In this document: positions 16,731 to 19,513 of the stretch, one piece after another | Layout of the letters: every line of letters begins with the position of its first letter | Numbering within the stretch: position 1 is the first letter of the stretch | IMG/VR virus record: IMGVR_UViG_2563366960_000002 | DNA length: 64,000 bases | Reading direction: 5' to 3' (one strand) | Origin: a virus | Lineage: Duplodnaviria > Heunggongvirae > Uroviricota > Caudoviricetes | Program-made: the position numbers and the translations under genes | Notes under the pieces: generated by a model | Told to the model about the DNA's origin: nothing | Database searches by the model: none | Seen by the model: the letters and a program-made list of their open reading frames with translations, nothing else

Positions 16731-17558
16731 TTATTTCACCGGAACAAACGGAACAGCGGCATTACTGGTCATATACTGCGGTAATGTACCGTTCCATTTG
16801 TTGATCGCTTCCAACTCCATAACACCGGGGTTCTGGCGCAGAGCTTCACCACGTAAACGAATGGCATCAGCTTCGGCCTGGGCTTTTGTGCGAATAGCAT
16901 CAGCCTGTCCGGCAGCTTCCGCGCGCAGCATGTTGGCCTCTGCTTCACGTTGTTTGACCTCTTGCTCGCGTTGCAGGGTTTTTTGGTTTGCCGTAACTTT
17001 GGCGTTAATACTGTCAATAACTGTTGGCGGATATTCTGGCTTACCTACATAAGAGAGGCTCATCACCTGAATGCCGATTGGCGTCATTTCTTCCTGAATG
17101 TCTTTAAGGGCTGCATCAAGCAATTCAGATTTGCCACCGTCGATAAATTTGTCGGTGGTCATTTTGCTGGCTAACCGGTTCAGAGCATCTGCAACCTTCT
17201 GGCGTAGATCGGTATCAGTAATATCATCTACACCTTTGCGATAGGTCTGAAATACCGTTGTGACTTTTGCTGGATCAACCTTGTAGGCTACGCCGATGTG
17301 GTAACCAATGGTTGTTCCGTCGCTCATCTGGAAGCTGAACGGCTCATCGTATGTCTTCATTTGCTTAAAGGTCGGGAAGATATAAACTTCAGTATTCAAG
17401 CCTGTCCAGTAGCGACCAACACCAACTACTTCACCGATACCTTTATCATCCCCCAGCTTATTTACTTTGATCCCTACGTTACCTGGCTCTACCCGATCGC
17501 ATCCGGTCAGACATAAAGAACCCAAAATAATCGCTGCACTAATCAACGTTTTTTTCAT
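16731..17558 (-). CDS. plp: SPFH/band-7 domain lipoprotein (P1 Plp-like)
   Basis: 275-aa ORF; signal peptide with lipobox LTGC; band-7 core and C-terminal coiled coil. Confidence 0.65.
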   Translation of the reverse strand: MKKTLISAAIILGSLCLTGCDRVEPGNVGIKVNKLGDDKGIGEVVGVGRYWTGLNTEVYIFPTFKQMKTYDEPFSFQMSDGTTIGYHIGVAYKVDPAKVTTVFQTYRKGVDDITDTDLRQKVADALNRLASKMTTDKFIDGGKSELLDAALKDIQEEMTPIGIQVMSLSYVGKPEYPPTVIDSINAKVTANQKTLQREQEVKQREAEANMLRAEAAGQADAIRTKAQAEADAIRLRGEALRQNPGVMELEAINKWNGTLPQYMTSNAAVPFVPVK

Positions 17559-17775
17559 TAATTAATTTCCTGGTTTTTTCACGAAAAAAGACTACTGCGA
17601 AAGCCGGGTAAATGAGCGCGAGAAGGACTCCCAACAATACAAGTATTGTGCTGTTAGATGAGATCATATTTGGCAAAAGCCAAACATACAGAACCAGTGA
17701 CACAATCAAACAGAGGACGGCATAAATATATAACCGCACCCATAGCGTTCGACATTTGTTCGGATTGTTCTGCAT
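17539..17775 (-). CDS. small membrane protein (P1 Upl-like)
   Basis: 78-aa ORF with two hydrophobic helices, overlaps plp start. Confidence 0.5.
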   Translation of the reverse strand: MQNNPNKCRTLWVRLYIYAVLCLIVSLVLYVWLLPNMISSNSTILVLLGVLLALIYPAFAVVFFREKTRKLINEKNVD

Positions 17776-17931
17776 CCTCTCACTCCATTATTTAACGAAT
17801 AAAAAAGCTGCGGTGCCGGGTACCTCCCGGTGTCCTTTGGCTGGTTATCCACCGTGGACGGGGAAACAAGGAGAAATGAATGGACTGATATAACCATTTC
17901 CCCGCGTGCGCTTAGCCGCATTCACCGCAAT

Positions 17932-18031
17932 GGTAAGAGCACTTGGCTGGCTGGGCGGCGATGACGCCTGTATGCATTTGGTGATCCGGTTCTGCTTCCG
18001 GCATTCGCTTAATTAGCCAAATACTCTTAAC
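17932..18031 (-). repeat. GGTAAGAGCA-initiated structured element directly 3' of tRNA-Ser (imperfect partner TACTCTTAAC)
   Basis: Direct read; shares terminal motif with elements at 18497 and 19038. Confidence 0.3.
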
Positions 18032-18038
18032 GTTGCGC

Positions 18039-18125
18039 TGGCGGAGAGTAATGGAATCGAACCATCATCGCTTGCGCTATGGGACGGTTTTCAAGACCGC
18101 TTGAGCACCATGCTCCCTACTCTCC
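18039..18125 (-). tRNA. tRNA-Ser (anticodon UGA), class II with long variable arm
   Basis: Acceptor GGAGAGT/ACTCTCC, anticodon arm GCGGT-CTTGAAA-ACCGT, T-loop TTCGATT, encoded CCA; D-arm spacing non-canonical, needs covariance-model check. Confidence 0.65.
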
Positions 18126-18259
18126 CGTTATTGTGGCGACCGGTGCTGATCTCCGGCTTGCGGTTATTTCAGACTCTCACGGGCGTTTAATTGCCCCGCC
18201 GAACAGCTCTTTTCCGCAATAGCTGCAATGTCTTTCGCGCATCAGCCTGCGCATTCACC

Positions 18260-18350
18260 ACAACGTTGAGAACACTGGTTGTCACGCGCAACGCAACATT
18301 TATTCGTAGATTGGGATATGACCCCGTTACGCCAGTGTTCTCAACGTTGT
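18260..18350. repeat. perfect 19-bp inverted repeat ACAACGTTGAGAACACTGG / CCAGTGTTCTCAACGTTGT around a 53-nt spacer
   Basis: Direct read, arms 18260..18278 and 18332..18350. Confidence 0.7.
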
Positions 18351-18496
18351 AGTGCCGGTTACGGTTCCGGCCAGGCCTCTTCCTCAACGGGGTGTTCTCC
18401 ATACGGACTACCGTTTATTGGTCGTTCCTGCGGTTTATGTTGTGAAGCCAGATGCTTATCTTCTGGTTGCTTCAAAGAGCTGCACTTCATCACAAC

Positions 18497-18570
18497 GGTA
18501 AGAGCATTTATGGCTCGCATCGCGGGAAAAAGCCCACGGTAGAGAGTCGAACTCTACAAATGCTCTTACC
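18497..18570 (-). repeat. tRNA-sized palindromic element (13-bp terminal stem GGTAAGAGCATTT/AAATGCTCTTACC, internal T-arm-like hairpin) directly 3' of tRNA-Thr
   Basis: Direct read; no full cloverleaf could be drawn. Confidence 0.45.
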
Positions 18571-18578
18571 TGTTGTGT

Positions 18579-18654
18579 TGGTGCCGGTTAACGGGATCGA
18601 ACCGCTGACCATTCGCTTACAAAGCGACTGCTCTACCAACTGAGCTAAACCGGC
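18579..18654 (-). tRNA. tRNA-Thr (anticodon UGU)
   Basis: Acceptor GCCGGTT/AACCGGC, D-arm GCTC-AGTTGGTA-GAGC, anticodon loop TTTGTAA, T-loop TTCGATC, encoded CCA. Confidence 0.8.
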
Positions 18655-18658
18655 AATT

Positions 18659-18745
18659 TGGTGGGGAGTGATGGAGTCGAACCACCCGAGTCGCAATGAC
18701 AGTAGATTTACAGTCTACCCCGCTACCCCTACGGACTAACTCCCC
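18659..18745 (-). tRNA. tRNA-Tyr (anticodon GUA), class II
   Basis: Anticodon arm GTAGA-CTGTAAA-TCTAC and variable arm nearly identical to E. coli tRNA-Tyr as recalled; acceptor GGGGAGT/ACTCCCC; D-arm spacing irregular. Confidence 0.65.
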
Positions 18746-18750
18746 TAAAT

Positions 18751-18827
18751 TGGCGATGGTGGGTGGATTCGAACCACCGACCGACAGCTTAGAAGGCTGC
18801 TGCTCTATCCTACTGAGCTACACCATC
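18751..18827 (-). tRNA. tRNA-Arg (anticodon UCU)
   Basis: Acceptor GATGGTG/CACCATC, D-arm GCTC-AGTAGGATA-GAGC, anticodon arm GCAGC-CTTCTAA-GCTGT, T-arm GGTGG-TTCGAAT-CCACC, encoded CCA. Confidence 0.8.
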
Positions 18828-19037
18828 ACTTGCCGGGTACGTCTCCGGCGAGGGCTTCCACCTCCGTATGCTTTTCGGCGCACCGCGCCCTGGCTGCAAT
18901 TCGGTAACAGGGGATGCACAACCCTGGCTTCCAACGTGATTAGCGCCTTCAGCATGACGGGATATACCCGTAGTAGGACGTTATCTTCAAATTGCTAAAA
19001 GCAATTGCTGTTACGCAGAATGAAAAAGGACGTAACA

Positions 19038-19105
19038 GGTAAGGACGCTGACCAAAAAGATGGCCCCTTCTCGCTCATCTGGTTAATCGAACCAGCGCCC
19101 TTACC
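19038..19105. repeat. palindromic element GGTAAGGACGC...GCGCCCTTACC with internal CTGG-TTAATCGAA-CCAG hairpin
   Basis: Direct read; terminal motif shared with 18497..18570. Confidence 0.4.
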
Positions 19106-19496
19106 TGTTGTGCCTCCCCGTTCCCTAATACACAGACGGGGACACTCTGCGGTCGATTTTTTGACGGGGGACGACTCATACCCCGTGGCGTCTGGCTTCT
19201 TAGGCCGCTACCATCATCAGATCATCGTTTGCATTTACTTTAATGGTCAGTTTCTAAACCGCCGCAAAGTCGCTAACCATGACGAAAACCCTGAAAAAAA
19301 CGCCCACCCGAAGATGGGCAAACTGGAAGCTCGTAACGCACTTCGGTGTTGCCACTTAGGCGTATGGTCAACCTGGCAACTCGGCGTCATGATGGGGAAG
19401 GAGTCACTACCCCGCCATACTTGCCGCCGCGCCTGTCGCGGCTAACAGCTAAATCGCTCTATAAATCACGATTCATTGATGCGATATTACACTAAT

Positions 19497-19513
19497 AAAT
19501 TTATTAGAGCAAT
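19497..19513 (-). promoter_or_regulatory. C1-type operator, perfect 17/17 ATTGCTCTAATAAATTT, overlapping the last codons and stop of dmt
   Basis: Direct read; -35-like TTGCTC inside, TAATAT 17 bp downstream on minus strand; a degenerate inverted site follows at 19451..19469. Confidence 0.7.

Follow-up and report, generated by a model that had tools for sequence, protein, structure and literature searches.

What is a long and perfect inverted repeat doing between two phage tRNA genes? The question was raised by an initial annotation of the IMG/VR virus record IMGVR_UViG_2563366960_000002 (Caudoviricetes), of which one stretch of 64,000 nucleotides, here called the window, was analysed. The annotation described two 19-bp arms around a 53-nt spacer, and offered a structured RNA, a protein-binding or recombination site and a miniature inverted-repeat element as explanations. 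Our analysis places the repeat at the base of a hairpin, named hairpin c, in the untranslated leader of the ban operon of a P1-like phage-plasmid, and argues for a structured RNA made from the minus strand. As to its role, we propose, tentatively and with a chance that we put slightly short of even, that the repeat is the basal stem of a conserved minus-strand RNA hairpin in a C1-repressed leader and acts there as a double-stranded RNA processing signal of the RNase III type.

The arm ACAACGTTGAGAACACTGG was located on the plus strand at 18260-18278 and, after a 53-nt spacer, in exact reverse complement at 18332-18350, as annotated; the location between tRNA-Ser (18039-18125) and tRNA-Thr (18579-18654), both on the minus strand, was likewise confirmed. 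When the window was searched for the arm with up to three mismatches, two matches were obtained, both of them the known arms, and none of 100 dinucleotide shuffles gave two. By our own arithmetic, the expected number of perfect 19-mer repeats in 64 kb whose spacer is 0-200 nt long is about 5e-5 (64000 x 201 x 4^-19), so the claim that the pair is unlikely to have arisen by chance holds. The repeat in fact extends to 18256-18278 / 18332-18354, 23 nt with a single non-complementary position, which on the minus strand forms a U.G pair. Among inverted repeats of the 64-kb window with arms no more than 200 nt apart, it is the longest.

Fold prediction, which had been proposed as a check, gave -54.5 kcal/mol for the minus strand of the repeat (z = -8.7 against shuffles) and -44.6 kcal/mol for the plus strand (z = -5.6). 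When the 235-nt unit was folded, the whole stem was present in both the minimum free energy and the centroid structure. The element is laid out as follows:

18256..18354, minus strand: hairpin c, the inverted repeat, with 5' arm 18354-18332, apex 18331-18279 and 3' arm 18278-18256

The stem comprises 23 bp including the one U.G pair, and the 53-nt apex folds into two small hairpins. The first of these has, in the hairpins of this type, a covarying stem and a conserved loop, ACGGGNYCAUAWCCCAAUCYA.

Is the structure maintained by selection, and on which strand? An alignment of close relatives was made from the window, P1-like variants, Yersinia phage PY54 and two IMG/VR contigs, and the apex loop given above was taken from it. 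Standard pairs made up 93.7% of its cells, against 33-50% when the partners were slid by 1-3 columns, and both-sided changes were found in 10 of 25 pairs; sliding the partners left 1-3 such pairs, and shuffles gave 3.6 on average. Where the window has C at 18264, P1 and most P1-like elements have T, which leaves a C.A mismatch in the stem; the series in the P1-like elements runs from C-G (window) through C.A (P1 and most others) to U-A (L023 and L066). On this comparison most versions of the stem are slightly imperfect, and the perfect 19 bp is a minority allele found in the window plasmid and a few relatives. The P1 counterpart of hairpin c shows 97.7% identity.

Wider sampling relied on an IMG/VR pattern scan for the 5' motif of an RNA module that follows the hairpin, which returned at least 120 contigs, and on a second scan anchored on the canonical 5' arm, which returned at least 120 further ones; the family counts given below are among the matches listed, together with phage records. 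Because the 5' anchors were unreliable for a mini-hairpin alignment of all stems, that alignment was replaced by a test of cognate against non-cognate arms. Among 44 classes of 3' arm, the cognate upstream region outpaired all 43 non-cognate ones in 16; most other hairpin-bearing classes share the common arm sequence, so that non-cognate arms pair with them as well. In segments of a fixed 146 nt, the motif-bearing strand folded better in 78 of 82 cases, with a mean difference of -8.6 kcal/mol, as against 38 of 82 for a downstream control segment, and every tRNA gene within 1.5 kb of the motif (51/51) shares its strand. The covariation, the strand-biased folding and the co-orientation with tRNA genes together indicate that the structure is formed in the transcript. 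The first option of the initial annotation, a structured RNA, is thus supported by compensatory changes among homologues and paralogues, by the better folding of the transcribed strand and by a fixed place ahead of an RNA module or tRNA; nor is the repeat a unique element without compensatory change, since homologues exist and covary.

From which transcript would such an RNA come? The window is 100% identical to the 94.9-kb E. coli plasmid NZ_CP124376.1, and the hairpin region is about 89-94% identical to P1, P7, D6 and other punaviruses; the window is a P1-like phage-plasmid. Aligned to the annotated P1 genome, hairpin c falls within the ban operon, downstream of the promoter Pban and on the same strand as the tRNA genes and the operon. 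The order after Pban/Oban in this alignment is a 'dicF-like' stretch, the tRNA genes, tciA-C, trnI, ban and dbn, all on the minus strand in the orientation of the window. About 1.7 kb, from Pban to 17775, is untranslated leader, non-coding on the tRNA strand. Since a promoter scan of 17500-19600 found no promoter-like site and no U-tract follows the stem, hairpin c should be internal to a longer transcript. The leader contains these further features:

19481..19518, no strand assigned: palindrome matching the P1 bivalent C1 operator Oban and overlapping the promoter Pban; start of the minus-strand leader transcript
19031..19112, minus strand: hairpin a, a paralogue, then divergent sequence, of which the last hairpin (18849-18828) directly adjoins the 5' end of tRNA-Arg
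18579..18827, minus strand: tRNA-Arg(UCU), tRNA-Tyr(GUA) and tRNA-Thr(UGU), between unit a and hairpin b
18488..18577, minus strand: hairpin b, a paralogue, beginning 1 nt past the 3' end of tRNA-Thr
18346..18493, minus strand: module b, its 5' boundary at about 18493 at GUGAUG, set by eye, and its 3' motif at 18372-18346
18131..18261, minus strand: module c, with 5' start GUGGUGAAUGCGCAGGCUGAUGCGC, a variable insert and 3' end GCCGGAGAUCAGCACCGGUCGCCACAA
18039..18125, minus strand: tRNA-Ser(UGA), between module c and hairpin d
17923..18037, minus strand: hairpin d, a paralogue, beginning 1 nt past the 3' end of tRNA-Ser
17809..17928, minus strand: module d, matching positions 31-147 of the Rfam STnc100 model at 35.1 bits against a gathering score of 47

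Four long hairpins whose arms are related thus stand in the leader (a, 19112-19031; b, 18577-18488; c, 18354-18256; d, 18037-17923), each with a structured module behind it, and the stem of hairpin d requires two G-U pairs that are possible on the minus strand only. Neighbouring elements interlock: the 5' arm of hairpin c opens with 9 nt that are also the 3' end of module b (GGCCGGAACCGUAACCGGCACUACAAC; CACUACAAC), and the first 6 nt of module c are shared with the 3' arm of that hairpin. The tRNA genes lie at the exact junctions of units; tRNA-Ser begins 5 nt beyond the end of module c. A segment of phage mEp460 that is itself a module matches module c at 98% identity. Module d is, besides the tRNAs, the only part of the leader with an Rfam match, and its score is below threshold, as are the STnc100 scores of the module copies of P1, D6 and Ro157c2 (33-40 bits against the same gathering score of 47). 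No match to STnc100 (RF02076) was obtained over 18256-18354 or module c, and neither ARAGORN nor the Rfam tRNA model called a tRNA at 18131-18261. In the Rfam scans hairpin c was covered only by microRNA-precursor hits, which are meaningless and arise for any long hairpin. DicF, C4, transfer-messenger RNA (tmRNA) and put-like families had no credible match in the leader, where 19162-19330 gave only weak and probably spurious tmRNA-type hits (E = 0.018-0.35).

Some further observations concern the same operon and plasmid. The sole terminator-like site of the leader, a hairpin with a U-run at 19320-19301 within 19295-19390 on the minus strand, lies just downstream of Pban, inside the region that corresponds to the 'dicF-like' stretch of P1. 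The first open reading frames (ORFs) of the operon in the window replace tciABC: at the place of P1 tciA-tciB-tciC, 16731-17775 on the minus strand encodes an SPFH/Band_7 (Band-7) lipoprotein (Pfam PF01145, E = 1e-30) and a hydrophobic ORF of 78 aa. The tRNA-Ser(UGA) at 18039-18125 (minus strand) scores 41.8 bits with the Rfam tRNA-Sec model, below the gathering score of 47, and the same ambiguity was noted in the annotation of D6; this score is an effect of the long variable arm and no evidence for a selenocysteine tRNA. Elsewhere in the window, at 26858-27046, the 16-mer TGTGTGCTGGAGGGAA occurs three times, once in one orientation and twice in the other, and we take these copies to resemble the P1 RepA iterons of the plasmid replicon.

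In the P1 reference a plus-strand coding sequence named plp (P1_gp072, 'putative lipoprotein') overlies the hairpin, with upl ahead of it. Translation of plp would begin at a TTG codon, and the frame crosses tRNA-Thr in antisense orientation. Only P1 and D6 keep the frame unbroken; in the window it is shifted after residue 19 by a 1-nt indel in the apex, and in Ro157c2 it is split over three frames. RefSeq calls no gene at the hairpin site in nearly all of the P1-like plasmids listed, which number in the hundreds. Since the frame is broken, antisense to tRNA-Thr and uncalled in RefSeq, plp is, on this reading of the sequences, no real gene, and the region would be RNA-coding on the opposite strand. 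Both plp and upl (P1 NC_005856.1, 69472-70041, equal to locus L001 3159-3728; window ~18190-18610, plus strand) are probable mis-annotations antisense to the ban leader.

How far does the arrangement extend beyond P1? The 3' arm of hairpin c and module c have matches in many lambdoid phages, and of 5426 complete E. coli genomes, 1173 carry at least part of the hairpin-module unit, with 799 of the places chromosomal. A long hairpin stands directly upstream of 82 of the 103 unique modules from IMG/VR and the phage records, immediately 5' of the module and sharing 3-6 nt with it. The hairpins of the family have stems of 19-30 bp and apices from 4 to more than 100 nt (103 nt at most in the module-anchored set), and a matching 3' arm was present in every one of the 98 unique units that the canonical 5' arm anchored. 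The commonest stem is CACAACAGGUAAGAGCAUUG ... CAGUGCUCUUUCCGUUGUGGUG, beside many others of quite different sequence. The module consists of a conserved 5' part and a conserved 3' part flanking an insert of about 20 to more than 170 nt, and its small hairpins covary: GCGCA/UGCGC always changes jointly to GCACA/UGUGC, and GCCGG/CCGGC occurs in U-A and A-U versions. Many lambdoid contigs have a linker and an intrinsic terminator at the end of the unit. The unit is oriented as the late genes in HK629 and PY54, and as the adjacent repressor gene in mEp460.

Individual members of the family add details of context. In mEp460-type phages the unit stands immediately to the left of the repressor gene; a pL-like promoter precedes it and a terminator closes it. 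This is the nutL/putL position. In mEp460 itself (L005 ~2390-2850, minus strand) an annotated plus-strand ORF, mEp460_037, runs antisense over the unit, like plp in P1. At 4869-5037 (plus strand) of the same locus, isrK (67 bits) and a C4 antisense RNA (52.8 bits) stand beside a rha-like antirepressor gene, unrelated to the hairpin. Contigs of the L110 type (L110, L062, L072 and L123) have an operator-flanked TTGACA-18-TACATT promoter in place of the long hairpin. In units such as those of L005, L136, L056, L057 and L099, the long hairpin is immediately preceded on its 5' side by a small one, CCUGG-GAAGAGA-CCAGG, which has compensatory variants. Many 3' arms read YGCUCUU(U/A), and together with this small hairpin they recall the boxA and boxB of antitermination sites.

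The unit was also looked for in described small RNAs and in the literature. The PasA, PasC and PasD loci of E. coli E2348/69 showed no blastn or motif similarity to the window region. No copy of the unit was found in the late regions of the DLP12 and Qin prophages of E. coli K-12, and published K-12 maps of RNase III cleavage were therefore not usable. A full-text search of the literature with the motif sequences of the unit returned nothing, and the RNA sequencing papers on P1vir do not discuss the hairpin region. For the long hairpin, its link to module or tRNA and the tandem array in the P1 ban leader, no describing paper was found, the P1 genome paper lying outside the search.

The nature of the element that follows the hairpin gave the strongest support for a leader role. 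In contigs L136 and L172, about 60-215 nt into the units, a genuine tRNA-Arg(UCU) takes the place of the module behind the same canonical long hairpin. Nucleotides 1-3 of this tRNA are the last three of the 3' arm, and behind it stand the trailer and terminator that follow modules in other contigs. As maturation of this tRNA needs removal of the hairpin, the hairpin is there a 5' leader to be removed; and as hairpin, trailer and terminator are shared, tRNA and module are interchangeable in one slot. The module itself closes by a 6-7 nt pairing with its 3' end, followed by 2-3 nt and then by a 4-5-bp stem with a 6-8-nt loop containing GG; in the 3' portion, after the insert, a 5-bp stem runs directly into the 3' strand of the closing helix. 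Two of its loops are complementary (GCUGAU / AUCAGC). The module thus looks tRNA-shaped, with an acceptor-like closing stem on a T-like stem, a D-like stem (the covarying GCGCA/UGCGC) and the insert at the place of the anticodon arm, a likeness limited to the acceptor, D-like and T-like spacing. It is apparently related to the prophage small RNAs STnc100 and PasD, and beyond the sub-threshold match to STnc100 it is absent from Rfam.

Our preferred explanation, that the hairpin is a processing signal, builds on this arrangement. The hairpin would be a structured leader or spacer between tRNAs or tRNA-like RNAs in a long transcript, and no gene product itself. RNase III would cut the stem of about two turns, so that the tRNA or mRNA ahead of it and the tRNA-like module behind it come apart, and the short tails left by the cut would be trimmed by RNase P and exonucleases; an uncut hairpin next to the CCA end of a tRNA would be expected to hinder 3' trimming. 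E. coli RNase III needs about two helical turns, and a stem of 20-28 bp suits it. Precedents in phages are the T7 early sites (R1.1), lambda sib and the lambda N-leader site, the T4 tRNA cluster precursor and the maturation of DicF. With 23 bp and one U.G pair, the stem of hairpin c offers about two turns (20 bp or more) of largely continuous double-stranded RNA and so fits the length requirement of the enzyme. We infer the RNase III role by analogy with such sites, and RNase P may likewise cleave the modules.

A bolder version would see in hairpin and module a tRNA-derived phage RNA cassette that has gone undescribed: RNase III would remove the hairpin, the tRNA machinery of the host would mature a tRNA-shaped scaffold with a possible loop-loop elbow, and a variable insert would stand for the anticodon arm, so that the cassette, swappable with tRNA genes, would deliver regulatory or decoy RNAs in P1-like and lambdoid phages. 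We regard this larger proposal as rather unlikely.

Several findings weigh against the processing-signal explanation or weaken its support. The arms are conserved across phages far above the need of a purely structural nuclease site, and the apex of the hairpin c type has a conserved, covarying sub-structure of its own; both hint at a sequence-specific partner, or at a function of the hairpin RNA itself. In P1 taken alone, the C.A mismatch of the sense strand is a G.U pair on the other strand, which leaves the strand argument neutral for that phage. The idea that a promoter replaces the hairpin was dropped as a general rule, a recognisable promoter being found in the hairpin position in only 3 of 21 hairpin-less units. 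Finally, a knock-down by CRISPR interference over P1 trnT, plp, upl, tci and ban gave no plaque defect (PMC10695390), and so no phenotype constrains the model.

The conserved apex is also what would be expected if the hairpin were a working domain of a trans-acting small RNA, whether as a 5' stem against 5'-end-dependent decay, as a binding site for ProQ or Hfq, or as an apex loop presented to a target. The apex of the hairpin c type is conserved and covaries among P1-like phages, PY54 and the two IMG/VR contigs, many lambdoid units finish with an intrinsic terminator as small RNA genes do, and the relatives of the module, STnc100 and PasD, are abundant Hfq-associated prophage small RNAs of unreported function (PMC8550237; bioRxiv 10.64898/2026.05.13.724894; Pearl Mizrahi 2021; Zhu, Shabalina and Storz 2026 preprint). 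However, STnc100 and PasD are without the long hairpin, and across the family the apex ranges from 4 to more than 100 nt with unrelated sequences. The same hairpin ahead of a true tRNA cannot belong to the mature product, and no site complementary to the apex loop was found in the window. We consider this role unlikely. Less probable again, and in our view quite improbable, is a cis element of the nut, put or rrn boxA kind that sustains RNA polymerase through the untranslated, terminator-containing leader or blocks the loading of Rho. The 1.7-kb ban leader would be exposed to Rho, and the units occupy leader positions behind Pban in P1, behind a pL- or operator-like promoter by the repressor gene in the mEp460 and L110 types, and behind Q/pR' in HK629 and PY54, often with terminator-like hairpins just upstream or downstream. 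The YGCUCUU(U/A) of many 3' arms is boxA-like, and the small hairpin with the GAAGAGA loop that precedes some units is boxB-like. A nut site would have a single-stranded boxA (YGCUCUUUA) to which NusB-NusE binds, beside a boxB hairpin; the boxA resemblance was seen by eye, and in hairpin c the stretch concerned (UGUUCUCAAC) is degenerate and base-paired, buried, as the boxA-like stretch is elsewhere, in a stem of 20 bp. Moreover, the units have no similarity to the HK022 put regions, late operons are already served by Q, four tandem copies would not be needed, and a genuine tRNA can take the place of the module.

Recombination at the DNA level, one of the options first annotated, would make the repeat a joint at which tRNA or RNA cassettes are swapped, by homologous recombination or by attC-like recombination of a folded single strand. 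P1, D6, Ro157c2 and the window do differ cassette-wise, with breakpoints that fall inside hairpin d and the conserved 5' motif of module c; tRNA and module swap between the same hairpin and trailer; and the layout is that of an imperfect hairpin with a bulge, a basal AAC...GTT and a variable apex. Yet homologous recombination makes a mosaic joint of any conserved sequence, with no special function required, and the base CACAAC/GUUGUG does not fit the attC consensus RYYYAAC/GTTRRRY. No recombinase was consistently linked to the units, whose contexts differ, although no search aimed at an integrase was made, and the universal co-orientation with transcription is simpler to understand if RNA is the functional form. 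We judge such a joint very unlikely. A site bound by a protein, also suggested at the outset, is a minor alternative. It is hardly credible, finally, that the repeat is an ordinary feature or none at all, that is, a chance palindrome, an intrinsic terminator, a miniature inverted-repeat element or part of plp. The P1 reference annotates plp across the repeat, and the hairpin resembles a terminal-inverted-repeat structure, but these readings are excluded by the shuffles, the fold z-scores, the terminator scan, the copy search and the broken plp frame.

Specific identities were rejected one by one. The 3' arm is followed by AAUGCGCAGG, without a U-tract, and the terminator scan finds nothing at hairpin c. 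The flanks of the proposed miniature inverted-repeat element, CGCATTCACC and TAGTGCCGGT, are no direct repeats, so there is no target-site duplication; they are parts of module c and module b, the conserved RNA structures on either side, and within 64 kb, at up to three mismatches, only the two arms match, the related hairpins being tandem paralogues in one leader. That option of the initial annotation was therefore abandoned. An integron attC site was discarded as the stem base, CACAAC / GTTGTG or CACTAC / GTTGTG, is off the core consensus. A hammerhead ribozyme was ruled out since CUGAUG is present and GAAA is not conserved, an HDV-like or theta ribozyme and a Y RNA by their topology, and an ERIC repeat by its different sequence. 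A retron non-coding RNA was set aside on the assumption that no reverse transcriptase is to be expected in P1.

What follows for the biology of these phages? The 1.7-kb stretch from Pban to the first ban-operon gene of the much-studied P1 is apparently a dense array of conserved structured RNAs, which the P1 reference covers with two doubtful protein genes, upl and plp. Through the hairpin, P1 shares in an RNA unit widespread among lambdoid phages and prophages, of which the only named sister branch is STnc100/PasD and no branch has a known function. If the leader hairpin and tRNA-like scaffold are both real, they would account for the maturation of phage tRNAs and small RNAs from long operon transcripts, and would give Rfam a new RNA family and provide a natural system in which variable RNAs are expressed on a tRNA scaffold. 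Should the processing stem alone be real, the outcome is a useful correction of the annotation, and an unsurprising one.

The hairpin can be compared with several known systems. Inverted repeats of the attC and miniature-element kind share with it an imperfect repeat, a bulge, a variable centre and a place at cassette boundaries; in contrast to them, the hairpin is off the attC consensus, lacks a target-site duplication, occurs in single copy per locus and is always co-oriented with transcription. The nut boxA/boxB, rrn boxA and HK022 put sites likewise occupy operon leaders downstream of repressor-controlled promoters, and the YGCUCUU and small-hairpin resemblances were noted above, whereas the boxA-like stretch of the unit is base-paired and similarity to HK022 put is absent. 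The C4 antisense RNA of P1/P7 (RF01695) is also a small RNA of P1 in an operon leader, and both C4 and the modules mimic the stack of acceptor and T arms; the 5' end of C4 is made by RNase P from a tRNA-like precursor. Unlike the modules in the ban leader, C4 belongs to the immI operon, and there is no sequence or Rfam similarity between them.

STnc100/PasD (RF02076) resembles the unit in its core, which has a closing stem UGGUG...CACCA, a 5' hairpin and a 3' hairpin CCGG-loop-CCGG, and in its moron positions in temperate phages. The Rfam model of STnc100 runs from an AU-rich 5' leader through the module and a linker to a terminator, and so does PasD, which matches the whole of the model below threshold; neither has a long hairpin, and the PasD seed quoted in PMC8550237 lies in the linker. 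They differ from the P1 copies in having their own promoter and AU-rich leader; hairpin c lies outside the Rfam model, and the P1 copies are without terminators, in tandem and interleaved with tRNAs. Closest to the processing role that we tentatively prefer are the RNase III hairpins of phages, which place a double-stranded stem of at least about 20 bp within a polycistronic transcript, at a boundary between functional RNAs, and whose apex can vary freely; that of T4 even lies within a tRNA cluster. The P1-type hairpin departs from them in that its arms are strongly conserved across unrelated phages, its 3' arm overlaps the start of the downstream tRNA or module, and the apex of its sub-type has a conserved fold.

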